A stretch of DNA of 48,886 nt from Candidatus Nanopelagicales bacterium (GCA_030728405.1 JANQZS010000099.1:15281-64166); one strand, 5' to 3'; numbered from the stretch's first letter, positions 17,453-41,840 are shown. Program-made: numbers and translations. The notes: generated by a model not told the origin, from the sequence alone.

Positions 17453-17557
17453 GGTCAAGAGCACCAGCGTTAAGTCCCGGCTCGCTGGTCGGCAACCCTC
17501 CTCCGCGGTGGGGTGCTCCGGGAGCAGACCAGGCCTCATCCGAGGCAAGCGCGAGTC
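17453..17557 (+). ncRNA. SAM-IV riboswitch upstream of metK
   Basis: GGTCAAGAGCACCAGCGTTAAGTCCCGGCTCGCTGGTCGGCAACCCTCCTCCGCGGTGGGGTGCTCCGGGAGCAGACCAGG...GGCAAGCGCG follows the SAM-IV architecture (P1 GGTC/GACC, P2 CCAGCG/CGCTGG, GGCAAC, pseudoknot TCCCGG/CCGGGA, 3' AAGCGCG); -10 TAGAGT at 17440-17445. Confidence 0.92.
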
Positions 17558-17601: not shown

Positions 17602-18852
17602 GTGTCAAACCGCTTGTTCACATCAGAGTCAGTCACTGAGGGTCACCCAGACAAAATGGCGGACCAGATTAGTGATGCCATCCTTGATGATCTTCTGCGC
17701 CAAGACCCACGTAGCCGGGTGGCGGTTGAGACGATGCTCACGACCGGTCAGGTGCACGTTGCTGGCGAGGTGACCACCGAAGGTTTTGCAGATGTCATGA
17801 AATTAGTGCGCGATACCGTCATGGAAATTGGTTATGACTCGTCGGCCAAGGGTTTTGATGGCGAGTCGTGTGGCATCTCGGTGTCGATCGGCAAGCAGTC
17901 ACCAGATATCGCGCAGGGTGTCGACGATGCAATCGAAGAGCGCGAGGGTGCAAGTTCTGATCCGCTTGATCGTCAGGGCGCGGGGGACCAAGGTTTAATG
18001 TTTGGGTTCGCGTGCACTGACACAGTCGATTTGATGCCGCTGCCTATTTCCTTGGCGCAGCGGTTGGCACAGCAGCTCACCTCCGTTCGCAAAGACGGGA
18101 CCATGCCGTACCTGCGGCCAGACGGCAAAACTCAGGTCACCATTGCTTACGACGAGAACGATCGACCCATCAGGATCGACACGGTTGTGGTGAGCAGCCA
18201 GCATGCCCGTGACATCAGTTTGGAAAACATGCTGACCCCGGATGTGCGCAAGTACGTTGTCGAGCCCATTTTGTCGACAATCGATCTTGATTCCAGCGAT
18301 TACCGTCTGCTGGTGAACCCCACCGGTCGCTTCGAAGTCGGCGGCCCGATGGGTGATGCTGGCCTGACCGGTCGCAAAATCATTGTTGATACCTACGGTG
18401 GCATGGCCCGACATGGTGGCGGAGCGTTCTCTGGCAAAGATCCATCAAAGGTGGACCGTTCGGCGGCATACGCGATGCGCTGGGTGGCCAAGAATGTTGT
18501 GGCTGCGGGGCTTGCTACCCGCTGCGAGGTTCAAGTTGCCTACGCGATTGGCAAAGCCCACCCGGTGGGAGTATTCGTGGAGACTTTTGGCACGGGGGTA
18601 ATCGCCGACGAAGCAATCCAAGAGGCGGTACTTCGAGTCTTTGACCTTCGCCCGGCTGCGATCATCCGCGATTTGGATCTCTTGCGGCCCATTTATCGAG
18701 TGACGAGTGCCTACGGACACTTTGGGCGTCCACAGGGAACCAATGAGCTTCTCGACTCTGATGACCCGACCAAGCGCACCAAGGTTGGCCCCACGTTTAC
18801 TTGGGAAAACACCGACCGCGCAGAGGATCTCCGCTCGGTCGCCGGTATCTAG
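17602..18852 (+). CDS. metK: S-adenosylmethionine synthetase
   Basis: [28 protein letters not shown] and [16 protein letters not shown]. Confidence 0.98.
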
Positions 18853-28990: not shown

Positions 28991-30175
28991 TTAGGCAACG
29001 ACTGCGCCTTTTTTCAATGGCACAATCGCAATGAACTGGGCAGAACAAATGATCGCTATGAGTGTGAAAATCATGGCCCAGGAATCAAACGCGTCGTAAA
29101 TTGTTCCGGCGATAAACGGTCCAGACGCCGCGATGAGATAGGTCACGAAGAACGCCATCGCGGTCAAACGGGCGGCGGCGGCTGCGTTGGGTGAAAGATC
29201 GCTGAGAAGACCCAATGACATAGCGAATCCACCACTGAGAAAGTATCCGAGTCCAAAAAGGACCAGCGGCGGGGCAAAGTCAGGCACCCAAGCAATGCAC
29301 AACAACGTGAGTACCGTCATGAAGATGGTCGAAGCAAAGAGTGTGCGCCGATGAACTATCCGGTGCGATATGGCCGGGAGGGTCAGCGCTGAGGTCACCT
29401 GCGCTACGGCGAACACTGCGAACAGCCAGCCAGCATCGGTTTGGCTCCAACCTCGCTCGGCGTATGAGGGCGCAATCCACGCAAGCGCACTGTAGAAAAC
29501 GATGGAATTTATCGTAAGAAATGCAGTGAGTGCCCAAGCGGTGCGATTTCGCCATGGAAGCTCACGCAGTCGTACCAAGGTAGCTGGGCGCACGTGTTGC
29601 ACAGTGGTTCGTTCTGCCAATTGCCATACCACCAGTGCAATAGCGCCGGGGATCGCCCAGACGGCTAGCGCCAATTGCCAGGAACCCCACCACAATGCGA
29701 GTGGCACCGTGATGGCGCTGGCGATAGCGGCACCACCCATCAAGCTCGACGTCCAAGCGCCGGTGGCTTTGCCCATTGCGTTGGGCATTTGTTCGCGGAC
29801 CAGCCCAGGCACAAGGCCGGTCGCGAGAGCGATGCCAATGCCTGCAAGGGCAGCCGAGAAGAGTAGGACCGTTCCCTGCACAGCAAACGCCCGCATTCCG
29901 ATAGCGATTGTGAGAACGACCAATGCGATCGTTACCGTGCGCGTGCGGCCGACCCGTTGAGCGAGTGCGGGAACCACGAGTGCAAAAAGCCCCATCATTA
30001 CTACCGGAAGGGTTGTCAGCAAGCCAGCGGTGGCGCTATTCCAGCCAAATTCCTCCTGGATTTGCACCACCACGGTCGGCACGCTCGTGAGAGCCGGTCG
30101 CAAATTGACCGCGATCATGATTACTGAAACCCACAGCAACACGCGAGGAGTCTTCGTGGACGTCGTGGTGGGCAC
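28991..30175 (-). CDS. MFS transporter, CynX/NimT (cyanate permease-like) family
   Basis: About 12 hydrophobic segments; A.NLRPA.TS in TM1, AGLLTTLP, W...LA.WA.P and AA.LTAMA..V.YLIAA.GP are typical of the CynX-like family; substrate unknown. Confidence 0.8.
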   Translation of the reverse strand: MPTTTSTKTPRVLLWVSVIMIAVNLRPALTSVPTVVVQIQEEFGWNSATAGLLTTLPVVMMGLFALVVPALAQRVGRTRTVTIALVVLTIAIGMRAFAVQGTVLLFSAALAGIGIALATGLVPGLVREQMPNAMGKATGAWTSSLMGGAAIASAITVPLALWWGSWQLALAVWAIPGAIALVVWQLAERTTVQHVRPATLVRLRELPWRNRTAWALTAFLTINSIVFYSALAWIAPSYAERGWSQTDAGWLFAVFAVAQVTSALTLPAISHRIVHRRTLFASTIFMTVLTLLCIAWVPDFAPPLVLFGLGYFLSGGFAMSLGLLSDLSPNAAAAARLTAMAFFVTYLIAASGPFIAGTIYDAFDSWAMIFTLIAIICSAQFIAIVPLKKGAVVA

Positions 30176-30205
30176 GCACAGAGTCTTGCGCTTTACCCTT
30201 GTGCA

Positions 30206-30658
30206 ATGTCGAGTGGGGATACGCCGAACACACCAGGCGGTGGTCGGACCATCGCCGGATCGGCCTTTGGCTCAGACGACGGTTCTGCAGATCCGGTCTT
30301 GCGCGCGCTTCTTGAAGCTAAATCTGCCTCTGCCCGAGAACTACTGGGGACCGCGCGGCTTCTGGTCGCGGTCATTGCTGTGGCTGATGAAGTCGATCAG
30401 GAGTCAGGTGCCGACAAGGACTCGCACATGGCGGTCGTGTCCATGGTCAATGCAGCAGGGGAGCGCGGCCTCTTGGCGTTCACGGGGCTCGATGCCATGG
30501 CGCTGTGGGATCCGGTCGCACGGCCAGTTCCCGTCACAGGAGCCGCAGCCGCGCAGGCCACCCTTGACGATGGGAACACCGCACTGGTGATTGATGTCTG
30601 CGGCCCTCACAGGTATGTGGTTGCTGGCGAAGAACTGAAGAGACTCGCGAATCAGTAA
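30206..30658 (+). CDS. SseB-family protein (actinobacterial)
   Basis: F.DDDGSADP, ARLLV.V.A, DK.SHMAVV, L.AFT....M..W.P.ARPVP and VID..GP; leaderless -10 TACCCT at 30194-30199. Confidence 0.8.
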   Translation: MSSGDTPNTPGGGRTIAGSAFGSDDGSADPVLRALLEAKSASARELLGTARLLVAVIAVADEVDQESGADKDSHMAVVSMVNAAGERGLLAFTGLDAMALWDPVARPVPVTGAAAAQATLDDGNTALVIDVCGPHRYVVAGEELKRLANQ

Positions 30659-30993
30659 ACTGGGCCGGTCAGGTCTTCCCCTGGTCCCATTCCAGGTGGA
30701 TCCGGGATCACCGACGCCTCACGAAATGCCCGCTGTAGTGAGGAGAGTCCATCTCGGAGTGGTGCCGCATGAATGCTGCCAAGGCTGGGCGCTGCAGCGG
30801 TTACCAGACCGGCTAAAGCCGTGATCAGAATCCTGGCTTCTGCAAGATCTGTTTGGTCGTCGGTCTCGCCCGATTCCCCTCCTGAATCCTCGCCTAAGCC
30901 GCAGGCCACAGCGGAGGCCGACATCAGGTGGAGGGCGACCGTTAGCACGACCTCAACGGCTGGAACCTCACCGATTTCCAAGCGCTCACTCAT
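30652..30993 (-). CDS. DUF1844-family protein divergent from infC
   Basis: EVPAVEV...A.HLMSA.AV.CGL...DL.EAR.LI.ALAGLVTAAAP...H..PLRDGL..LQ.AFREAS..PD.PG.GPGE..TGPV; true start ATG 30993, not the 31413 of the ORF track. Confidence 0.85.
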   Translation of the reverse strand: MSERLEIGEVPAVEVVLTVALHLMSASAVACGLGEDSGGESGETDDQTDLAEARILITALAGLVTAAAPSLGSIHAAPLRDGLSSLQRAFREASVIPDPPGMGPGEDLTGPVY

Positions 30994-31011
30994 GGCTGCT
31001 ACCCTTGCACC

Positions 31012-31198
31012 AATCTCACCCGGCTTCACGGCCGGGTAGTGCAAGCGGAGCTGGCAGCTCCCACCTGATAACCCCTGGTTGTCTAGGTCGAGTGACGGGA
31101 TCGATTCCGTCTGTCTGCCTCCGTGCGCGCTGCGCCGGAGGCTTTTTATGTGGCGTGAGATTGCACGCCAGCATTGTCCCCTCGAGCAAGGAGGCGCC
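31012..31198 (+). promoter_or_regulatory. Structured 5' leader of infC-rpmI-rplT with an internal intrinsic terminator (putative attenuator / ribosomal-protein leader)
   Basis: -10 TACCCT 31000-31005; hairpins at 31018-31037, 31047-31061, 31063-31088 and 31094-31111, then a terminator at 31117-31147. Confidence 0.6.
31117..31147 (+). terminator. Rho-independent terminator about 50 nt upstream of the infC start
   Basis: GCCTCCG-T-GCGC-GCT-GCGC-CGGAGGC followed by TTTTT. Confidence 0.75.
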
Positions 31199-31765
31199 AT
31201 CAGCGTCGAACCACGCATCAACGACCGGATTCGCGTCCCGGAGGTCCGACTTGTCGGTCCTGCGGGCGAGCAGGTGGGAATCGTGCGCATCGAAGATGCG
31301 TTGCGATTGGCAGCAGAAGCAGATCTTGACCTAGTCGAGGTAGCTCCGCTGGCAAAGCCACCTGTATGCAAATTGATGGACTTCGGAAAGTTCAAGTACG
31401 AAGCAGCCCTCAAGGAGCGCGAATCTCGCCGGAATCAGACGCATACCGTCATCAAAGAGATGAAACTGCGTCCGAAGATTGACTCGCATGATTACGAGAC
31501 CAAAAAAGGTCACGTGGAGCGGTTTTTGCGGGCAGGCGACAAGGTCAAGATCACGATCATGTTTCGTGGTCGTGAGCAGAGCAGGCCTGAACTTGGACTG
31601 CGACTTCTCGGCAGACTTGCAGAGGATGTCCAGGAACTTGGCTTCGTAGAAGCCACGCCCAAGCAAGATGGCCGAAACATGCTCATGGTGCTGGCACCTC
31701 ATCGACGCAAGACCGCTAAAGATGGCCTCGCACCTACTGAGGATGAACAACGCGAAACCGCTTAA
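31199..31765 (+). CDS. infC: Translation initiation factor IF-3 (non-canonical ATC start)
   Basis: AAGGAGG-CGCC-ATC; [35 protein letters not shown] and KE.KLRPKID.HDY.TK. Confidence 0.95.
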
Positions 31766-31835
31766 CCACCGTTAGGCGCACATCCAGAAACTTCCGATCT
31801 GAAAGCGGATCGGCCGAAAGCAAGGACACGAAGAG

Positions 31836-32030
31836 ATGCCGAAGCAAAAGACCCATAGCGGCGCCAAGAAGCGCTTCAAAGTGACGGGATCAGGCAAGGT
31901 CACCCACGAGCAGGCCAATCGTCGTCACCTCATGGAGGTCAAGTCGAGCAAGCGCACCCGCAAGCTCATGTCCGATGAGGTCGTGTCCAAGGCCGACATC
32001 AAGAAGGTCAACAGGCTGCTTGGTCGCTAA
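31836..32030 (+). CDS. rpmI: 50S ribosomal protein L35
   Basis: [21 protein letters not shown]. Confidence 0.98.
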
Positions 32031-32112
32031 GCGCGCCCGTGTGAGTCGTCCCCGTTTTTCCCACGATTTTTAATGGATCCTGCACCGGATCCCGCACGAT
32101 GAGGAGATAGCC

Positions 32113-32481
32113 ATGGCACGCGTCAAGCGCGCAGTAAATGCACAGAAGAAGCGTCGCGAGATGCTCGAGCGGGCTTCGGGTTACCGCGGCCAGCGTTCGC
32201 GTCTCTACCGAAAGGCCAAGGAGCAGGTAACGCACTCGCTCGTCTATGCCTACGCAGATCGACGTGCCCGCAAGGGTGACTTTCGCCGGCTCTGGATCCA
32301 GCGCATCAACGCTGGTGCCCGCGCGCATGGCATGACCTACAACCGCTTCATCCAGGGCCTTAAGGCTGCTGGTGTTGAGGTGGACCGTCGCATGCTCGCT
32401 GAACTCGCAGTGAACGATCAGGCCGCATTCGCGACCCTGGTCGATCTCTCGCGTGCCTCGCTCCCAGCAAACGCAGCCTGA
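32113..32481 (+). CDS. rplT: 50S ribosomal protein L20
   Basis: MARVKRAV...[11 protein letters not shown]...[15 protein letters not shown]. Confidence 0.98.
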
Positions 32482-32488
32482 CTCTTCC

Positions 32489-33295
32489 GTGGCTGAGCGC
32501 GAACTCAGTTCACGTTCGTCGGATCACGTCCGCTACCTGCGCAGTCTGCATAACCGAGCAGGTCGGAGTGATCACGCACGACTTCTGGTCGAGGGCCCTG
32601 CCGCTCTCACGCTTTTGCTAGGCGATTCTCGGCCAGTCGAGGTGTTTGATGTGCTCCTTGAGCACGGCCGACACCCGGCTTTGGAGCGGTTGGTCCACGA
32701 ACACAACGACAACATTTCGTGGATCACCGAAGAGGTTTCTCGTGCGCTGAGTGAGACGGAAAACCCGCAGGGTGCCTTCGCCGAAATCGCACTCCCGCAC
32801 TTCGACGTTGCAGAAATCATGACGGGGCCAGGTCCAGTCATCATTTGTGATGGGATCGGGGATCCCGGTAACGCCGGAACCATCATGCGAACCAGTCACG
32901 CAGTCGGTGCTTCCGGCGTCATCTTTCTGGCAGGGTGTGTCGACCCGTTCAACGGCAAGGCCGTGCGTAGTGCTGCGGGGTCGGCGCTGTGCATTCCTAT
33001 CGCCTCAGGATGTTCTTGGCTCGAGGTCCTGGAAGCGGCTCGAGCATCAGGGCGCCCGCTCTGGGCACTGACCGCGCATGGTGAGACAGATGTGATCACG
33101 GCCGCAGCCAGCCGAGTCCCCGGCGACATGGCTTTGGGTTGGATCGTCGGCTCTGAAGCACACGGACTATCACCCGAGGTTGAAGCTGCTGCCGATCTAC
33201 GCGTCTCCATTCCCATGCCGGGCGGGGCGGAATCACTCAACGCCGCTATGGCACTTGGCATCTCGGTCTATCTGGAGCTCGCCGCGAGAAGGTGA
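32489..33295 (+). CDS. TrmH/SpoU-family RNA 2'-O-methyltransferase
   Basis: LVEG, SETENPQG, DPGNAGT.MR, D..N.KAVRSAAG, GSEAHGL and IPM.G.AESLN; usual position after rplT; start estimated at GTG 32489. Confidence 0.92.
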   Translation: MAERELSSRSSDHVRYLRSLHNRAGRSDHARLLVEGPAALTLLLGDSRPVEVFDVLLEHGRHPALERLVHEHNDNISWITEEVSRALSETENPQGAFAEIALPHFDVAEIMTGPGPVIICDGIGDPGNAGTIMRTSHAVGASGVIFLAGCVDPFNGKAVRSAAGSALCIPIASGCSWLEVLEAARASGRPLWALTAHGETDVITAAASRVPGDMALGWIVGSEAHGLSPEVEAAADLRVSIPMPGGAESLNAAMALGISVYLELAARR

Positions 33296-33396
33296 CGCAC
33301 CGCCCACCAACACACCTTGTGTGAGGCCACGGATCTGGTCGGGAGAGTGAAAGACTGAACGTGCACAGTGAGCGTGGATTTCGAGGAGGAGCTGGC

Positions 33397-34212
33397 ATGA
33401 GTTACATCGAGTTGCCGATCATGCAGGAGACGGGCTACGTCGTGGTCGATCAATATGACCAAGCTGCCGATCCCGCTGAGTGGGAAGACCTCATCTACGT
33501 TGACTGGAAATCATCCGGGGATACCCGATTTGCCCCCTTGGCAAGCGCCTATGGCGACATCGAGTGCAACGGTTTCTGGAATCACACCCCGCCAAAAACC
33601 GATAAAGATGGCGTCTGGGTCACAGAGAATGTCGCGATTGCTCCTCACCTCACTGAGCGCGCGATGGAACCGGGTGCAAACGTCGGCCGTTGTCGCGTCA
33701 TTGAACTTAAACCAAATACCTACGGCGAGGCCCTCTACAACTTGCATCGCGATGACAACAACCGGCTCAATCCCGAGGGCACCGGATGGATTGTGCGGGG
33801 CTTTTTCAACCTGACCGACGATGCCGATTCGGTCATGATCCTGCGCTCGGACAAGGATGATCCGTCCACTGAAATGCGTATCTCGCTGCCCGCTGGCCAG
33901 CAGATCGTGATCGACACCCAGCGTTTTTACCACGCTGTGTGGCATCCAGGAGACAAAGTTCGTTACTGCCTGATCACCTCGTGGGAGTCCGGTCCGGAGT
34001 TGCAGGCCTGGATGGATGCGCGCCATCCGGTCTCGTCGATCCCGAACCATCCGATTGATCCCACGGTTCAGGCCGAGGGGGAGAAGTTGGCTGCGGACAA
34101 GCGTGCAGCGCGTGCGGCGGCTTTGGCGGCCGAGGGTAAAGATCCGCGTTTCGGAGATGGGTCGATGGCCCTCGCGGAGTCCGAAACCATGGAAGTACTG
34201 TCAGAAGCCTGA
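33397..34212 (+). CDS. Uncharacterised protein, probable Fe(II)/2-oxoglutarate dioxygenase (AspH / beta-hydroxylase-like double-stranded beta-helix)
   Basis: Strong SD GAGGAG before ATG 33397; 271 aa; pattern R.R...L.P...LH117-R-D119...R...NL...G..I.ID....H179AV.H.G...R189Y.LI. Confidence 0.65.
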
Positions 34213-34246
34213 TCCCGCGAATTACCCCGTTCTCAAGGAGTATCTG

Positions 34247-35182
34247 GTGTCACCTGTGAACTCAAGCGCTCCGACCGTGCCCTACAGCGCTGTCCTGGAC
34301 GAGCTCGAGGCCGAGGCCATCCACATCTATCGGGAGACCGCGGCGGCATTTAAGAACCCGGTCCTGCTCTACAGCATCGGCAAAGACTCCTCGGTGCTTC
34401 TGCACTTGGCCATTAAGGCCTTCGCGCCGGCGCCGGTCCCGTTCCCGCTCATGCACATCGACACCGGCTGGAAGTTCCGGGAGATGATCGAATTCCGCGA
34501 TCGTCGGGCCGCGGAACTGGGCCTGGATCTGCGCATCGCGCAGAATGCGGCGGCGGTCGCCGAGGGAGTGACCCCCTTCACCCACGGCACCCACGAGTAC
34601 ACCCGGCTTATGAAGACGGTCGCTCTGCGCGAGGGCATCGATCGGTATGGCTTCGATGCGGCCATCGGCGGTGCCCGCCGGGATGAGGAACGCAGTCGAG
34701 CCAAGGAGCGCATCTTCAGCCTGCGCGAGCCCGGGCATCAATGGGATCCGCGCAAACAGCGCCCAGAGTTCTGGCGTACGGCCAACACGCAACTCTCACC
34801 CGGTCAGAGCATGCGGGTCTTCCCGCTGTCCAACTGGACCGAGCTCGACATCTGGAAGTACATCCAGCGGGAAAACATCGAGATCCCTGATCTCTACTTC
34901 GCCAAACCGCGCCCTGTAGTCGATCGCGACGGAATGTGGATCATGGTCGACGACGACCGCTTCCCACTGCTCGAGGGAGAGGTGCCGCAGATGCGGTCGG
35001 TGCGATTCCGCACGCTGGGTTGCTACCCCCTCTCTGGCGCGGTCGAGTCGACAGCCGACACCATGGTGCAACTGGTCGAGGAGATGGCTGGGTCCAAGTA
35101 CTCAGAGCGCTCCGGCCGCCTCATTGATGGAGAAGGCGGCTCGGAGTCCATGGAAGGCAAGAAGAAGGAGGGCTATTTCTAG
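34247..35182 (+). CDS. cysD: Sulfate adenylyltransferase subunit 2
   Basis: [21 protein letters not shown]-loop, [33 protein letters not shown] and KKKEGYF; GTG 34247 after AAGGAG. Confidence 0.97.
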
Positions 35183-37071
35183 TGGCTGGCAATAGTGCTC
35201 TTACTCCCGTATTGCATTTGGTGACTTGTGGCTCAGTCGACGACGGCAAATCCACCCTCATCGGACGTCTCCTTGCAGAAACTGATTCGATCCCCATCGA
35301 CACCTTGGAGTACGCAAAGCGCACCAGGCGCGGTGGATCCACGATTCCTGTGGGCGAGATCGACTATTCACTTCTGACTGACGGTCTTGAAGCCGAGCGC
35401 GAGCAAGGCATCACCATTGACGTTGCATACCGGCACATGAACCTGCCAAACGGGCGCCGAGTTCTCGTTGCCGATTCGCCCGGACATGAGCAGTACACCC
35501 GCAACATGGCGGTAGCAGCATCCAATGGCGACGTGTCGATCTTGATGGTAGACGCGGCCCGAGGGGTCCGGCCACAAACCCATCGGCATCTCACCATCAG
35601 CGCTTTGATGGGTGTGAAAACAATCATCGTGGCTGTAAACAAAATGGATCTCGTGAACTACGACCATGCGACCTTCGAAGAAATCGTGGGAACAGTTCGG
35701 GCCACGGCAGCACGGCTCGACGTTGCAGAGGTCATCGCCATCCCGGTGAGTGCCTTCACCGGAGACAACATCACTGCACCGAGCGCATCGATGCCTTGGT
35801 ACACAGGTCCCACTCTGCTTGGCGCTCTCGAGGAATGGGAGCCAGTCGATACCCGCGCAGGTGCAGCCACGGTGGCCACCCCATTCCGATTCCCGGTGCA
35901 GTTCATTGTGCGTGCCGAAGGAAATTTCCGCGGTTACGCCGGAACTGTTGTATCTGGATCAATTCGACCGGGCGACACAGTGGTCATTGCCGATTCGGGC
36001 CGAAAAGCCAAAGTCGATCGGATAGTTACCTACGATCTCCACACCGATGGACACATCGCCGATCTCCCAGTTGCCGTGACTGGTGCTGCAGTGACATTGA
36101 CACTTGATCATGAGGTCGACGTCACCCGTGGAGATGTAATCGCTGGGATTGACAGCCATGTGGTGGAGCCAGCCGATCGGTTCTCCGTCGATATGGTCTG
36201 GCTGGGTGAAGAGCCCCTAGCCCATGGCCGTTCATACCTTCTTGTTTCGGGATCGCGCTCCGTCCCCGCAACTGTTACCAACGTTCGTCATCGACTTGAT
36301 GTGGTGTCGGGTCACGAGCATGCTGCTCGCGTGCTTTCCATGAACGACATTGGTCGAGTTGAAGTTGCCACAGACAAGCCCATGCCGATGGATCCCTATG
36401 CGCTGTGCCGTGACACCGGTGGCTTCTTGCTGGTTGATCGGGTGACCTCAGACACAGTTGCTGCCGGGCTCGTCCGTCACGCTATGCGCCGCTCCACAAA
36501 TGTGGTGCGGCACGAGTACGTCGTAGATAGCGACGCGCGTAAATTGCTGATGGGTCACGATGCAAAGGTGGTGTGGCTCACGGGACTTTCGGGAGCTGGA
36601 AAGTCCACCATTGCTGATGCCGCCGTGAAGCAACTTCACGCACTTGGCGTGCATACCTTCATTCTCGACGGCGACAACGTCCGGCACGGGCTGAACAAGG
36701 ATCTCGGCTTCACTCCTGAGGACCGCGCCGAAAATGTTAGGCGCGTCGCTGAGGTGAGTCGTCTCATGGTAGACGCCGGGCTCGTGGTGTTCGTCGCTTT
36801 AGTCTCACCTTTCGTCACCGATCGCCGTGCTGCCCGGGAACAATTTGCGCCAGGGCAGTTCATCGAGGTATTTGTCGACACCCCGCTGAACGTGGTCACC
36901 GCACGCGATACCAAGGGCTTGTACGCGAAGGCTGCCCAGGGAACCTTGCCGAACCTGACTGGGGTGGGCCAGGAGTATGAACCACCCGTGTCACCAGAAC
37001 TGATCCTTCGCGGCGACGGCGATCTCGATGAATCAGTTGCCGAACTCGTACGCGTCATCTTGGGGGAGTAG
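35182..37071 (+). CDS. cysNC: Fused sulfate adenylyltransferase subunit 1 / adenylyl-sulfate kinase (CysNC)
   Basis: GTPase motifs TCGSVDDGKSTLIGRLL, EREQGITIDVAYR, DSPGH and NKMD; C-terminal APS kinase WLTGLSGAGKST, LDGDNVRHGL and KGLY.KA. Confidence 0.96.
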   Translation: MAGNSALTPVLHLVTCGSVDDGKSTLIGRLLAETDSIPIDTLEYAKRTRRGGSTIPVGEIDYSLLTDGLEAEREQGITIDVAYRHMNLPNGRRVLVADSPGHEQYTRNMAVAASNGDVSILMVDAARGVRPQTHRHLTISALMGVKTIIVAVNKMDLVNYDHATFEEIVGTVRATAARLDVAEVIAIPVSAFTGDNITAPSASMPWYTGPTLLGALEEWEPVDTRAGAATVATPFRFPVQFIVRAEGNFRGYAGTVVSGSIRPGDTVVIADSGRKAKVDRIVTYDLHTDGHIADLPVAVTGAAVTLTLDHEVDVTRGDVIAGIDSHVVEPADRFSVDMVWLGEEPLAHGRSYLLVSGSRSVPATVTNVRHRLDVVSGHEHAARVLSMNDIGRVEVATDKPMPMDPYALCRDTGGFLLVDRVTSDTVAAGLVRHAMRRSTNVVRHEYVVDSDARKLLMGHDAKVVWLTGLSGAGKSTIADAAVKQLHALGVHTFILDGDNVRHGLNKDLGFTPEDRAENVRRVAEVSRLMVDAGLVVFVALVSPFVTDRRAAREQFAPGQFIEVFVDTPLNVVTARDTKGLYAKAAQGTLPNLTGVGQEYEPPVSPELILRGDGDLDESVAELVRVILGE

Positions 37072-37074
37072 CAC

Positions 37075-38184
37075 GTGTCAGCGCCCAACTCATCATTCGA
37101 TCCCAAACAGGTCTCAGCTCTGGGAGAAGATGCCGTCAATCAGATGGTGGCGGCGGCATTGGTTGATATTGCTGGAGCGGCTGATCTTGCGGCGCTGAAA
37201 GAGGTTCGACTTGCGCACGCCGGTGATCGGTCACCCTTAGCGCTCGCCAACCGCGAGATCGGTGCATTGCCACCTGCTGCAAAAGTTGAAGTTGGCAAGC
37301 GGGTGGGTGAGGCTCGGGCGCGCATCAAGGACGCGCTTACCTCTCGCGAAGAAGTCTTGCAGCGCCAAAGGGACGAAGAAGTTTTGGTCGCCGAAGCTGT
37401 TGACGTCACCGTTCCAACAACTCGTCGCTCGCTAGGTGGACGCCATCCGCTCACCACGCTGATGGAGGCGATGGCCGACGTGTTCATCGCAATGGGTTAT
37501 TCGGTTGCCGAGGGACCAGAACTTGAAGCTGAATGGGTGAATTTCGACGCACTCAACGTGCCGGCGGATCATCCGGCGCGCACGATGCAAGACACCTTCT
37601 ACGTGACTTCGCAAGACAGCGGTGCGGTGCTTCGCACGCAAACCTCGCCCATCCAGATTCGCGCGATGCTCTCGCGTGAACTGCCCATCCACGTCGTAGC
37701 TCCCGGACGGGTGTACAGAACTGACGAGCTCGACGCGACCCACACCCCCGTCTTCCATCAGATCGAAGGCCTTGCGGTCGATGAGGGTTTAACTATGGCG
37801 GACCTCAAGGGAACCTTGGATCATCTTGCTGAACAGATGTTCGGCGCTGGCATCGTCACGAGGTTGCGGCCCTCATACTTCCCGTTCACCGAGCCAAGTG
37901 CTGAAGTGGATTTGGAGTGCTTTGTGTGTCGCGGTGAATCAGTGGGAAATCCTGAGCGCCCGTGTCGCACCTGCGGCAGCGAAGGTTGGATCGAATGGGG
38001 TGGCTGCGGGATGGTCAATCCGCGGGTGCTGCGTTCTGTTGGGATTGATGCAGACGTGTATTCAGGCTTCGCGTTCGGAATGGGTATTGAGCGCACGCTG
38101 ATGTTCCGCAACGGAGTTACGGATATGCACGACATGGTCGAGGGCGATCTGAGATTCACCAGAGCTTTCGGAGTTGAGGCCTGA
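37075..38184 (+). CDS. pheS: Phenylalanine-tRNA ligase alpha subunit
   Basis: MSAPN.SFDP, NFDALN...[35 protein letters not shown] and [10 protein letters not shown]. Confidence 0.98.
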
Positions 38185-40697
38185 TGTTGATTTCTGCCAG
38201 TTGGCTCAGGGAACTCACCGGTGTCGATGCAAGTGGTCGTGACATTGCAGCTCGACTCATTGCTGCCGGCCTTGAAGTGGAAGGCGTGCACGTTGTCGGT
38301 GAGGGATTGACCGGCGCCCTAGTTGTCGGTCGGGTTCTTGAAATCGAGGAATTGACCGAGTTCAAGAAGCCGATCCGGTTCTGTCAGGTTGAAGTTGGAG
38401 CGGAAAACGGCGAGGGCAGCACGGGTGTGCGCGGCATCATCTGCGGTGCCCGCAACTTCAACGTTGGTGATCTCGTGGCGGTAGCGCTGCCCGGCACCGT
38501 ACTGCCCGGTGGCTTTCAGATCGCTTCGCGTGAAACGTACGGCCGACTTTCCGATGGAATGATTTGCTCGGAGCGCGAGATGGGCCTGGGCGATGACCAC
38601 GATGGCATTCTGGTTCTCACTCCCGACTCTGCAAACCCGGGCGATGACGTTCGTCCAATTCTGGGTATTGGCGATCAGGTCCTTGATATCGCTGTCACAC
38701 CCGATCGCGGTTATGCGCTCTCAGCTCGCGGCATCGCCCGAGAGGTCGCCATTGCCTATGGCGTTGCTTTCGTTGATCCCGTTGACCTAGCCCCGGATCT
38801 GCCAGCGCCTTCTGCCAGAGCGGTTCCCGTGGAATGCGGCAGCGATGATTTCTCCGCGTGCGACCTGTTCACTCTTTCCACAGTGCTGGGCTTTGACCCA
38901 AGTGCGCGCACGCCGCAATGGATGCGCAACCGACTTCGGGATTGCGGCATGCGCTCAGTCTCACTCGCCGTCGACATCACCAATTACGTGCTGCTCGAAC
39001 TTGGTCAGCCGCTCCATGCTTTCGACGTGGACCGTTTGCAGGGCGCAGTCATCGCGGGCCGTCCAGCTGAGGGGGAGCTGTTCACCACTCTGGATCACGT
39101 TGAGCGCGCTCTGGTTGCAGATGATCTGGTGATTCGTGATGACCGCGGCGCTATCGGTCTTGCTGGCGTGATGGGCGGCCTTGACGCTGAGATTTCAGAC
39201 ACCACCACCAACATCGCGCTTGAGTCTGCGCACTTTTCTGAAACAGTGATAGCGCGTAGTTCTCGTCGGTACCGACTTTCCAGTGAGGCCTCGAGGCGAT
39301 TCGAACGCGGTGTGGATCGCACCCTTGCTCCTTACGCTGCTGCTCGAGCCATGGCGCTTCTCCTTGAACTTGGTGGCGGTGAATATGTGGGGATGACTGC
39401 CGTTGAGGCACCGATGACAGAGACGGTCATTGAGATAGACGCGGACCTTCCCGCCCGCGTTGCTGGTATGTCTATTGATTCGCAGAGATCTATTGAGTTG
39501 CTTCGCGCGGTTGGCTGCGTAGTCACTGAGGTGGCCAATGCTGGCAACTCACTCCGTGTGGTGCCGCCCACCTGGCGTCCGGATCTCACTGACCCAGCCG
39601 ATCTTGTGGAAGAGGTCCTCCGACTCATCGGTTATGAGAATCTGCCGAGCACTCTGCCGGTAGCTCCTGCAGGCACCGGGCTCACGACGTCCCAGCGCAT
39701 TCGTCGCCGGGTGGGAACAACCCTTGCTCATCATGGCTTTGTCGAAGTCTTGACCTACCCGTTCGTAGGTCCAGAGGATCTTCGGCAGCTGCGTATCCCG
39801 GATTCGGATCCGCGTCGCGCGATGCCCGAGCTTGCTAATCCGCTCTCTGATGAAGCACCGTGGATGCGAAGTGCACTGCTCTTCACCTTGCTTCCAGCTG
39901 CGCGGCGCAATATCGGCCGTGGGCATTCCTCCGTCCAGATTTTCGAACTTGGCTCGGTGTTCTTGGGTGAGGTGTCCAACAACGCGATCCCCTCGATGGG
40001 TGTTGATCAGCGACCCACCGCTGAACAGTGGAGTGCACTTGAGTCGGCTCTTCCACATCAACCATTGCATTGCGCTGGTGTGTTGGCTGGTGAAATTGAG
40101 AACAGCAGTTGGTGGGGCGCTGGCCGCGTCAGCGATTGGTCTGATGCCGTTGAGGCTGCGCGCGAGATCGCAGAAGTGTGTGGGGTTGAACTATGTGCAC
40201 GCAACGGAAACGATCCCATGTTCCATCCCGGCAGGTGCGCTGAGCTGTTCATCAACGACGCCGTTGGTGAACCGATCGTGATCGGCTATGCCGGTGAGTT
40301 GCACCCGACCGTGTCTGAGGATTTCGGGCTGCCAACCAGATCCTGTGCATTTGAGGTTGACCTCGATCAGATCATCGCGGCTGCCCCGGCGGTTCGACCT
40401 GCTCCAGTTTTTTCCACTCACCCCGTCGCCAAGGAAGATTTAGCGCTTGTTGTTGATGCCAGTGTGGAGGCAGCCGCCGTGGAGCAGGCCCTGCGTGAGG
40501 GTGCCGGCCCGCTACTGGAGTCCATCCGCCTCTTCGACGTCTACACGGGTCCACAGGTGGGTGAGGGCAAGAAGTCACTGGCCTTCGCGTTGCGCCTGCG
40601 CGCCAACGACCGCACCCTCTCTGCTGAGGAGACCGCTGCCGTTCGTCAGGCTGCGATCGCAGCAGCAGAGGCAGCCTGCGGCGCAACACTGCGATAG
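38184..40697 (+). CDS. pheT: Phenylalanine-tRNA ligase beta subunit
   Basis: SWLRE, ICGARN, SDGMICS..E, TPDRGY, GQPLHAFD, SEAS.RFERG, PTWRPDL and the FDX-ACB domain FDVYTG. Confidence 0.98.
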   Translation: MLISASWLRELTGVDASGRDIAARLIAAGLEVEGVHVVGEGLTGALVVGRVLEIEELTEFKKPIRFCQVEVGAENGEGSTGVRGIICGARNFNVGDLVAVALPGTVLPGGFQIASRETYGRLSDGMICSEREMGLGDDHDGILVLTPDSANPGDDVRPILGIGDQVLDIAVTPDRGYALSARGIAREVAIAYGVAFVDPVDLAPDLPAPSARAVPVECGSDDFSACDLFTLSTVLGFDPSARTPQWMRNRLRDCGMRSVSLAVDITNYVLLELGQPLHAFDVDRLQGAVIAGRPAEGELFTTLDHVERALVADDLVIRDDRGAIGLAGVMGGLDAEISDTTTNIALESAHFSETVIARSSRRYRLSSEASRRFERGVDRTLAPYAAARAMALLLELGGGEYVGMTAVEAPMTETVIEIDADLPARVAGMSIDSQRSIELLRAVGCVVTEVANAGNSLRVVPPTWRPDLTDPADLVEEVLRLIGYENLPSTLPVAPAGTGLTTSQRIRRRVGTTLAHHGFVEVLTYPFVGPEDLRQLRIPDSDPRRAMPELANPLSDEAPWMRSALLFTLLPAARRNIGRGHSSVQIFELGSVFLGEVSNNAIPSMGVDQRPTAEQWSALESALPHQPLHCAGVLAGEIENSSWWGAGRVSDWSDAVEAAREIAEVCGVELCARNGNDPMFHPGRCAELFINDAVGEPIVIGYAGELHPTVSEDFGLPTRSCAFEVDLDQIIAAAPAVRPAPVFSTHPVAKEDLALVVDASVEAAAVEQALREGAGPLLESIRLFDVYTGPQVGEGKKSLAFALRLRANDRTLSAEETAAVRQAAIAAAEAACGATLR

Positions 40698-40779
40698 AGC
40701 ACTCTTCGCAGGAACACATTTCGGACGACAGGCGAGCCAACCAATGGCACGAGCTACTCGGCTAATGGGGAGCACTGTT

Positions 40780-40814
40780 TTTACTTTTTATGCGTGTATG
40801 CGTATAATTAGGGA
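40780..40814 (+). promoter_or_regulatory. SigA-type promoter of the arg operon (leaderless argC) with probable degenerate ARG box(es)
   Basis: TTTACT (40780-40785), 17-nt spacer, TATAAT (40803-40808), 6 nt, ATG; AT-rich tract with repeated ATGCGT resembling ARG-box half sites; argR is in the operon. Confidence 0.7.
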
Positions 40815-41840
40815 ATGATCATTGCAGCGGTCGCCGGGGCATCCGGGTATGCAGGTGGTGAGTTGCTTCGACTCATCGTTGCCCACCCAGGCATGAAGGT
40901 CGGCCCACTCGCTGCGGGGAGCCGAGCGGGGGAGTCGGTCGGGGCGGTCCATCCGACCTTGGTCGAGCTCGCTGAACTGCCATTGGTTGAGACGTCGGTG
41001 GATGCGTTGGCCGCTGCGGACATCGTCTTCCTCGCGCTCCCGCACGGGGAGTCAGCTGCTTTGGCTGCCCAGCTGCCCGCGGGACTGCCGGTCGTCGATC
41101 TGGGCGCGGATTTTCGGCTGTCAGACGCAGCCGCCTGGGAACGGTTCTATGGCGGATCACATGCAGGAACCTGGACGTATGGTTTGCCCGAGCTTCCAGG
41201 GGCCCGGAGTGCCATCAGTGGCAGCCGCCGCATCGCAAACCCGGGCTGCTACCCGACTGCCGTGGCTTTGGCCTTCGCACCCGTGCTCGCAGCCGGACTT
41301 GCACAACCGGATGTCGTCGTCGTGGCCGCGTCGGGAGCTTCCGGTGCGGGACGCAAGGCGACTGACTCTTTGCTTGCAACCCAGGTGATGGGCTCGATGA
41401 GCGCTTACAAAGTTGGCGGCTCGCACCAGCACACCCCGGAGATGGAGCAGTCGCTTTCGTCTGCTGCGGGCGTGGCCGTCACGCTCTCCTTCACTCCGCT
41501 ACTCGCCCCCATGCCGCGCGGAATCCTCGCGACCGTCTCGGCACCGATGCGTGCAGGGGTGTCCGAGTCGGCAGTGCGGGCGGCCCTCGCCGCCGCCTAC
41601 GCCGACGAGCCTTTTGTGCACCTACTGCCCGAGGGTCAGTGGCCGCAGACCTCTTCAGTCAGCGGGTCGAATGCTGCCCACCTGCAGTGCGCGGTCGATG
41701 AGCATGCGGGCCGCGTCGTAGTCGTGTGTGCGATAGACAACCTTGGCAAGGGTGCTGCCGGTCAGGCGCTGCAGAACGCAAACATCATCCTTGGCCTGCC
41801 CGAAGGAATGGGCCTGTCCGTCAACGGAGTAGCGCCATGA
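40815..41840 (+). CDS. argC: N-acetyl-gamma-glutamyl-phosphate reductase
   Basis: GASGYAGGELLR, LALPHG, DLGADFR, YGLPE, ANPGCYPT and IDNLGKGAAGQA.QN. Confidence 0.97.
   Translation: MIIAAVAGASGYAGGELLRLIVAHPGMKVGPLAAGSRAGESVGAVHPTLVELAELPLVETSVDALAAADIVFLALPHGESAALAAQLPAGLPVVDLGADFRLSDAAAWERFYGGSHAGTWTYGLPELPGARSAISGSRRIANPGCYPTAVALAFAPVLAAGLAQPDVVVVAASGASGAGRKATDSLLATQVMGSMSAYKVGGSHQHTPEMEQSLSSAAGVAVTLSFTPLLAPMPRGILATVSAPMRAGVSESAVRAALAAAYADEPFVHLLPEGQWPQTSSVSGSNAAHLQCAVDEHAGRVVVVCAIDNLGKGAAGQALQNANIILGLPEGMGLSVNGVAP

Follow-up and report, generated by a model that had tools for sequence, protein, structure and literature searches.

A predicted oxygenase gene upstream of cysD and cysNC

The DNA analyzed here is a 48,886-nt stretch from Candidatus Nanopelagicales bacterium (GCA_030728405.1 JANQZS010000099.1:15281-64166), referred to as the window, with positions counted from its first letter and gene-level annotation covering 28991-41840. 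It carries a block of three genes in which the sulfate activation genes cysD and cysNC are preceded by a gene for a putative Fe(II)/2-oxoglutarate (2OG) oxygenase, here called OXY. An earlier annotation of this DNA, the original prediction, had proposed that OXY and cysDNC form a dedicated module around the synthesis of 3'-phosphoadenosine 5'-phosphosulfate (PAPS). Our analysis points instead to an oxygenase that probably came to lie beside cysDNC by a lineage-specific arrangement. The block comprises the following features:

33384-33389, + strand: Shine-Dalgarno-like GGAGGA, 7 nt before the OXY ATG, read from the sequence
33397-34212, + strand: OXY, predicted Fe(II)/2OG oxygenase gene, 271 aa, ATG start (AlphaFold2 (AF2) model, Foldseek, hhalign and motif conservation)
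34247-35182, + strand: cysD, sulfate adenylyltransferase small subunit (NF009214, E 1e-143, 478.5 bits with a cut-off of 413; PAPS_reduct domain, 6e-53)
35182-37071, + strand: cysNC, fused sulfate adenylyltransferase GTPase subunit and adenosine 5'-phosphosulfate (APS) kinase (NF004035, E 4.6e-226, 751.9 bits with a cut-off of 715)

The cysD gene starts with a GTG at 34247, after AAGGAG and 34 nt past the OXY stop codon, its TAG stop overlaps the GTG start of cysNC (35182) by one base, and 3 nt separate cysNC from the following gene, pheS. This open reading frame (ORF) check confirmed the tight spacing described in the original prediction, and the strong Shine-Dalgarno sequence in front of OXY was likewise found. 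A longer version of OXY, starting with a GTG at 33361, is disfavoured since the homologues begin at the position of the ATG. The GC content varies little across the block (0.57-0.64), a consensus scan from rplT to pheT revealed neither a promoter-like site nor a convincing terminator-like one between genes of the block, and a search against Rfam gave no match near OXY. We infer that the three genes could be transcribed together. CysNC contains two P-loops, GSVDDGKS at residue 17 and GLSGAGKS at residue 468, the latter within an APS_kinase domain (462-609), and with both the kinase domain and its P-loop present the APS kinase is intact, as had been proposed.

OXY is predicted to be a distant relative of the PF05118 oxygenases

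The AF2 model of OXY, calculated from 37 sequences, reached a predicted local distance difference test (pLDDT) score of 89.0 and a predicted template modelling (pTM) score of 0.86, and only residues 255-271 fell below a pLDDT of 50. The model contains eight strands between residues 96 and 197, within a catalytic core spanning approximately residues 1-215, and continues with a helix (222-245) and a disordered linker. Comparison with the Protein Data Bank (PDB) by Foldseek returned 318 matches at E ≤ 0.001, and among the matches listed 2OG oxygenases lead: the best of these is the L-proline cis-4-hydroxylase 4p7x (E 4.4e-7, template modelling score over the query (TMq) 0.52), followed by the proline 3-hydroxylase 1e5r, and then by SnoN/SnoK, PHD2 and the hydroxylase entry 7v4f. 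When viral models were searched, the best matches carried the annotation Asp/Asn/Pro hydroxylase (TMq 0.61). The combination of AlphaFold and Foldseek, suggested in the original prediction as a check of the double-stranded beta-helix (DSBH) fold, thus gave a confident model with 2OG oxygenase matches.

None of the Pfam and NCBIfam models reached its cut-off for OXY. The best Pfam model, Asp_Arg_Hydrox (PF05118), scored 12.5 bits (E 0.13) over residues 163-194 only, with a gathering threshold of 22.6, and a genome-level scan with PF05118 gave OXY 12.1 bits. A profile search of PDB sequences with OXY returned three chance-level matches only (E 0.36-1.2), indicating that its relationship to solved structures is remote. 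For a more sensitive comparison we used a PF05118 template consisting of 13 actinobacterial proteins above the cut-off, collected from 301 sampled genomes of the phylum. When the 37-sequence OXY alignment was compared to this template using hhalign, the two aligned over 170 columns (query 7-209, template 60-238) with 95.0% probability and an E value of 3.9e-8. In this alignment, H117-x-D119 of OXY falls on the HxD motif of PF05118, H179 on the distal histidine, and R189 on the arginine at +10. The original prediction had placed an iron-binding triad and a 2OG-binding arginine at exactly these residues, and they are indeed present there and align with those of the family. Among the 37 OXY homologues, counting at each position those that have a residue there, H117 and D119 were each present in 34/37, H179 in 29/33 and R189 in 28/33. 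Foldseek and hhalign also agree on the AspH/LpxO/proline-hydroxylase-like class that had been suggested.

Judged from sequence and model, OXY is a predicted DSBH Fe(II)/2OG oxygenase belonging to an unnamed, highly conserved family of aquatic Actinomycetota that is a distant sister of PF05118, and it is very probably active as such. The protein would bind iron via H117, D119 and H179, with R189 holding the C5 carboxylate of 2OG, and would most likely act as a hydroxylase. No hydrophobic stretch was present in OXY (maximum Kyte-Doolittle 19-mer 0.68), and because of this the protein is predicted to be soluble and cytoplasmic.

A homology search yielded 1873 OXY homologues at E ≤ 0.001, the best 120 of which are 70-97% identical, indicating that the ORF is more than a chance reading frame. 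In the 50%-identity library, the homologues amounted to 316 cluster representatives. The few named ones read 'hypothetical protein, Candidatus Nanopelagicales', all 10 distant homologues that were looked up are metagenome proteins without a name, and literature searches returned no paper on this protein family or on a link between an oxygenase and cysDNC. No sequence relative of OXY was found by tblastn against phage records or in a scan of viral contigs. As a lead only, we mention that the neighbour cluster of OXY in the ESM Atlas consists mainly of viral proteins and that 17% of the cluster members carry PF05118. One 542-aa protein was considered as a fusion of OXY to another domain and was rejected, as the extra part resembles a mis-called frame and offers no functional hint; a consistent fusion partner did not emerge.

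OXY and cysDNC occur independently at the spoU-pheS junction

The block is located in a string of housekeeping genes, with OXY beginning 101 nt after spoU. The genes on either side are:

32113-32481, + strand: rplT, ribosomal protein L20 (ORF; 76-90% identical tblastn matches upstream of spoU in relatives)
32453-33295, + strand: spoU, SpoU/TrmH-family RNA 2'-O-methyltransferase (PF00588, 2.9e-29, and an MRM3-like substrate-binding domain)
37075-38184, + strand: pheS (ORF with a GTG start; 65-77% identical matches in relatives)
38184-40697, + strand: pheT (ORF)

We take the first of these to be rplT from its sequence and from synteny across relatives, and the pheS label is presumed correct on the basis of the original prediction and the conservation of the gene. 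Genes in the corresponding regions of relatives were called by picking the longest ORF.

In relatives that lack cysDNC at this site, pheS directly follows OXY or spoU. The gene order rplT-spoU-pheS was found in 4 of 5 relatives without OXY, in agreement with the earlier statement that these genes are normally contiguous, and on this comparison of gene orders it appears to be the ground state in the relatives. The best 30 OXY loci include 28 from the family of the window, f1 (the window itself among them), and one each from families f9 and f7. All except the f7 locus, which reads rplT-spoU-OXY-pheS, have the arrangement rplT-spoU-OXY-cysD(-cysNC) (29/30). Within f1, OXY is adjacent to cysD in 45 of the 47 other genomes, and in the remaining two the region is cut by contig ends. 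Outside f1, the adjacency was found in one f9 genome only, G009, with the order OXY-OXY-cysD-cysNC-pheS. In 24 non-f1 genomes for which coordinates of both genes were at hand these are unlinked, lying on different contigs or 0.3-1 Mb apart (1 Mb in G090). Six loci, from families f6, f7 and f10, have rplT-spoU-OXY(-OXY)-pheS without cysDNC: the order is rplT-spoU-OXY-pheS in f6 and rplT-spoU-OXY-OXY-pheS in four genomes of f10, with cysDNC either elsewhere in the genome or giving no match. The junction thus exists in three states, rplT-spoU-pheS, rplT-spoU-OXY-pheS and rplT-spoU-OXY-cysDNC-pheS, and therefore OXY and cysDNC come and go between spoU and pheS independently. In the scenario that we propose, this gap would have taken up OXY in some lineages, and OXY together with cysDNC in others, the two being separable.

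To place the different copies, we calculated a quick maximum-likelihood tree of 84 sequences, with support values from the Shimodaira-Hasegawa-like approximate likelihood ratio test (SH-aLRT) only and leaving out one locus from a genome flagged as unpublished. Two groups were distinguished within the order. Type A corresponds to the spoU-linked clade (support 98), and type B consists of paralogues with approximately 60% identity that are either the upstream member of a tandem pair or located at unrelated places. In this tree, the spoU-OXY-pheS rows are found at the base of the spoU-OXY-cysD rows. Tandem OXY pairs between spoU and pheS or cysD were seen at loci L046, L047, L048, L052, L053, L010 and L013 (genomes G106, G114, G009, G090, G196 and G182), with an upstream type B copy, ~60-65% identical to the query, and a downstream type A copy (~67-73%). 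The genome of the window itself gave a single OXY match. A type-A-like OXY located outside the spoU-pheS site (L049, 73% identical) is present in the f7 genome G015, between genes for an ABC-F-type ATPase and a saccharopine-dehydrogenase-like protein; this genome has no CysD match.

Type A proteins carry a C-terminal extension, in OXY residues 217-271 (window 34045-34209), composed of an Ala/Arg-rich basic helix (222-245), the low-confidence linker and a conserved tail. The query and its 120 closest homologues all end in E-x-[LMY]-S-E-A (121/121; EVLSEA in 87), and DPxFGDG directly precedes this tail in 100/121. The extension is absent from the shorter type B proteins and from the homologues in other classes. 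The tail looks like a docking or regulatory peptide.

Distribution of OXY and CysD

The same 201 genomes of the order were searched for OXY and for CysD (TIGR02039), and co-occurrence was tallied by hand from the two genome tables. Because of the kinship among these genomes and the incompleteness of some, we read the counts as a pattern and not as a statistical test. OXY was found in 107 genomes and CysD in 158, with 92 genomes containing both, 15 OXY only, 66 CysD only, and 28 neither. All 47 sampled other genomes of f1 contain OXY. Outside this family, CysD is present in 44 of 59 OXY-positive versus 66 of 94 OXY-negative genomes, indicating that the two are not associated there. Entire genera differ in opposite directions: CysD is present in all genomes of g27 (20/20) and g22 (11/11), none of which has OXY (0/20 and 0/11), and in g21 OXY occurs in 22/23 genomes and CysD in 12/23. 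In family f7, which has the smallest genomes of the order, OXY was found in 2 of 46 genomes.

Across the phylum, OXY is carried by 33 of 401 sampled genomes, including several families of other classes; one of the 33 is a genome flagged as unpublished, on which no other result rests. Homologues from other orders and classes within Actinomycetota are 39-67% identical to OXY. At 19 loci located outside the order, no spoU, cysD, cysNC or pheS was present within 1.5 kb, and in family f17, which belongs to another order of the class, the type-A-like copies lie outside the spoU-pheS string. Recurring neighbours in family f50 are a divergent alpha/beta hydrolase, methylmalonyl-CoA mutase and Leu/Phe-tRNA protein transferase, and in genus g26 an M14 peptidase and another alpha/beta hydrolase. 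Other neighbours include ABC transporters (exporters) and a molybdopterin oxidoreductase. In the neighbourhoods of paralogues and of the copies from other classes, no sulfur gene or other partner recurs beyond single lineages. The neighbourhood analysis of homologues proposed in the original prediction therefore did not reveal recurrent linkage to cysDNC, with 0/19 loci linked outside the order. As a separate observation, an alpha/beta hydrolase gene lies beside OXY in two lineages, f50 (L079-L083, L089, L093) and g26 (L044-L045), and the hydrolases of the two belong to separate sequence clusters. No other gene hints at being a recurring neighbour, and even this case may be due to chance.

Sulfate activation and probable PAPS use

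The genome to which the window belongs is 2.14 Mb in size, comprises 122 contigs, is 93.2% complete and has 59% GC. Its only match to PF01507 (PAPS_reduct) is cysD, so that no cysH was detected, and no NIR_SIR match indicative of sulfite reductase was present in this genome or in two others of its genus. Three Sulfotransfer_3 genes scored above the cut-off, at C104:44573-45268, C34:32405-33097 and C49:24521-24940 (L108-L110). One of the sulfotransferase genes lies beside genes for a 751-aa GT4 glycosyltransferase and a UDP-glucose dehydrogenase, a context that suggests a sulfated glycan. Another overlaps the start of a gene for an amine-oxidase-like flavoprotein, which is followed by genes for an SDR and a DsbA-like protein, and a third precedes an MFS transporter gene, between cinA and recA. 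Also encoded are one Inositol_P/CysQ-like protein and a SulP-type transporter whose gene is divided between contig ends, and no sulfate ABC permease reached the cut-off. This genome search for cysH, sulfite reductase and sulfotransferases had been recommended in the original prediction, which further stated that the window contains no cysH, sulfite reductase, sulfate transporter or sulfotransferase gene; within 28991-41840, the range of the gene annotation, that statement holds.

Both acI strains (PMC5301498) and cultivated Nanopelagicales isolates (PMC12817590) are described as missing complete assimilatory sulfate reduction, and the latter source adds that these bacteria depend on external sulfur sources. 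Based on our profile searches, CysD-CysNC is the only sulfate activation system of the genome. With no cysH or sulfite reductase match but three sulfotransferases, PAPS for sulfation is the likely output, and CysDNC would most likely supply the sulfotransferases encoded elsewhere. The idea that CysDNC here does something other than ordinary assimilation stands in this respect; it does not extend to the family, as f1 also includes genera that have NIR_SIR. In some genomes of those genera, e.g., G034, G092 and G172, the only CysD match is at this same locus, and for that reason we regard cysDNC as the general sulfate activation locus of the family and not as a special-purpose copy. The retention of PAPS synthesis and sulfotransferases after the loss of sulfate reduction points to as yet undescribed sulfated products, either small molecules or components of the cell surface.

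Expression

Only one RNA library, a metatranscriptome (run X20), contained any part of the region, as a single 329-nt contig with one mismatch that covers 33414-33742, inside OXY. Such libraries may contain DNA, and their contigs show neither level nor transcript ends, so we take the contig as no more than a hint of OXY expression. The remainder of 32400-37100 was uncovered by RNA contigs, which proves nothing on expression of cysDNC or on co-transcription.

A probable lineage-specific neighbourhood

Taken together, the explanation that we favour and consider probable is that OXY is an Fe(II)/2OG oxygenase, most likely a hydroxylase, which lies beside cysDNC owing to a lineage-specific arrangement, with CysD-CysNC most likely making PAPS for sulfotransferases encoded elsewhere. 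That the neighbourhood of OXY and cysDNC carries no obligate functional meaning is, given the comparative data, quite likely. Adjacency is confined to f1 and one f9 genome, 15 genomes have OXY only, 66 have CysD only, and 24 have both genes unlinked, which does not support a dedicated oxygenase-PAPS module. Homologues of OXY are thus rarely located next to sulfate activation genes, an outcome that the original prediction had itself named as an argument against such a module. That genes are closely spaced within a housekeeping string says little about whether they share a function.

Several observations weigh against this explanation. Within f1, the adjacency is universal wherever it can be resolved, the spacing is 34 nt and there is no terminator-like site between the genes, so that a function shared by OXY and cysDNC inside this family is conceivable; as the f1 genomes are kin, the adjacency counts, for or against, as about a single evolutionary event. 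That cysH and sulfite reductase are absent is concluded from a 93%-complete assembly of 122 contigs, and an NIR_SIR domain is present in 17 of 60 other f1 genomes (g3, g6, g12 and part of g5), where the locus may feed reduction as well. With respect to the active site, a second conserved histidine, H183 (32/35), is found four positions downstream of H179 and is not matched in the PF05118 consensus from the 13-protein alignment; it might be the actual ligand or might contact the substrate. Regarding the substrate, our tentative first choice is a small polar metabolite, for instance a free amino acid, because the nearest structures are free-proline hydroxylases and because metabolic enzymes typically have paralogues whose neighbourhoods diverge. 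A protein side chain would come second and a lipid or glycan third. This ranking is a weak one, drawn by analogy from the nearest solved structures only, at a TM of about 0.5.

The original prediction offered two ways in which OXY and CysDNC could cooperate. In one, the target of OXY is a lipid, glycan, peptide or nucleic acid, and the hydroxyl group that the enzyme adds is then sulfated, with PAPS from CysDNC, by a sulfotransferase whose gene lies elsewhere. The dense packing of the three genes without a terminator-like site, the adjacency of OXY and cysD in all resolvable f1 genomes, and the presence of three sulfotransferases in a genome in which no reductive branch was found are consistent with this, as is the presence of the lipid and sugar hydroxylases LpxO and KdoO among the PF05118 relatives. 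If true, this hydroxylate-then-sulfate system would be a new pathway, but comparative genomics speaks against it: 15 of the 107 OXY-positive genomes have no CysD match and 66 CysD genomes lack OXY, 24 genomes have both genes but in unlinked positions, three families have spoU-OXY-pheS without cysDNC, homologues in other classes have no sulfur gene nearby, and none of the three sulfotransferase loci contains an OXY homologue, the genome having a single OXY match. We therefore consider such tailoring improbable. In the other proposal, OXY oxidatively frees sulfate or sulfite from an organosulfur compound to feed CysDNC, comparable to TauD and AtsK, which oxidatively release sulfite or sulfate from organosulfur compounds. 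Adjacency to cysDNC in f1 fits this reaction, and so does the dependence on external sulfur sources described in PMC12817590. The same OXY/CysD distribution argues against it, however, and the relatives by fold and profile are PF05118 and proline hydroxylases, with no TauD-family entry among the PDB matches listed and no Pfam TauD hit. Moreover, in the established pathway sulfite is not a substrate of CysDN, and without cysH or sir any freed sulfate would not relieve the need for reduced sulfur, which makes this role very improbable indeed.

A role in translation is another possibility. The target of OXY could be RNA, an aminoacyl-tRNA synthetase, a translation factor or a ribosomal protein, and this would account for the retention of the gene in the infC-rpmI-rplT-spoU-pheST string. 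Of the 36 type A rows from the order in the tree, 35 have OXY between spoU and pheS (or cysD), the exception being G015, where the displaced copy lies beside the gene for an ABC-F-type ATPase. In addition, PHD2-type prolyl hydroxylases are among the fold matches, and type A alone has the basic Ala/Arg-rich helix and the invariant tail resembling a docking peptide. Nevertheless, vertical inheritance alone accounts for a conserved gene order among kin, and the synteny is limited to the order, since the type-A-like copies of f17, like every copy from other classes, are located at other places. The presence of the gene in only 2 of 46 genomes of f7, the smallest of the order, would be odd for a core translation function, and the nearest solved structures act on free proline and not on proteins. 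Overall, we find a translation-related role unlikely. A more specific variant, for which we see little likelihood, is that type A OXY is a hydroxylase docking by its E-x-[LMY]-S-E-A tail onto a conserved macromolecule, either a translation component encoded nearby or, in f1, the EF-Tu-like GTPase CysN. Bearing on this are the restriction of tail and basic helix to the copy in the rplT-spoU-pheS string, and the protein-acting prolyl hydroxylases among the fold relatives. If true, it would mean an oxygen- or 2OG-sensing modification of a core process in those actinobacteria that are most abundant in freshwater.

Other features of the window

Elsewhere in the window, a SAM-IV riboswitch (RF00634, 99 bits with a gathering score of 38) was found at 17453-17557 on the + strand, the sole Rfam match above threshold. 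It lies 45 nt upstream of metK, the gene for S-adenosylmethionine synthetase (17602-18852, + strand), in which all three Pfam domains are present. Just upstream of the infC-rpmI-rplT string are an SseB-family gene (30206-30658, + strand) and a divergent MFS transporter gene (28991-30175, - strand), and we saw no tie between these and the OXY block.

Comparison with known systems

The CysD-CysNC complex of Mycobacterium tuberculosis (PMC4373884) resembles that of the window in being encoded by two genes, with the APS kinase fused to CysN and with both APS and PAPS being made. According to the abstract of that publication, the mycobacterial pathway branches at this complex, which supplies reductive cysteine synthesis as well, whereas the genome of the window has no cysH or NIR_SIR match. 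For OXY, 4p7x and 1e5r are the nearest solved structures among the matches listed (E 4.4e-7 to 1.9e-6, TM 0.46-0.52), and they are likewise soluble enzymes and comparable to OXY in size, with 260-286 residues. Their identity to OXY is 14-16%, and at a TM of ~0.5 substrate specificity is not transferable. TauD and AtsK, sulfonate and sulfate-ester dioxygenases, combine Fe(II)/2OG chemistry with a link to sulfur metabolism, yet OXY gives no sequence match to them and they are not among the structure matches listed, so that kinship would be at the superfamily level only. The PF05118 family includes AspH, LpxO, KdoO and bacterial L-proline cis-4-hydroxylase. OXY differs from it by a score of 12.5 bits versus the cut-off of 22.6, by ~15% identity in the profile alignment, and by its own invariant blocks (FAPxASAxG, DKDG and HRDDNNRxNP), the second histidine at position 183 and the type A C-terminal tail. 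What the two have in common are the predicted DSBH fold, the HxD...H...(+10)R motif in register, a G-R-x-R pattern ahead of the core, and (I/F)-D-T preceding the distal histidine. With these catalytic hallmarks in an uncharacterised family that has no Pfam or NCBIfam model and occurs in dominant lake bacterioplankton, OXY is a reasonable target for substrate discovery.

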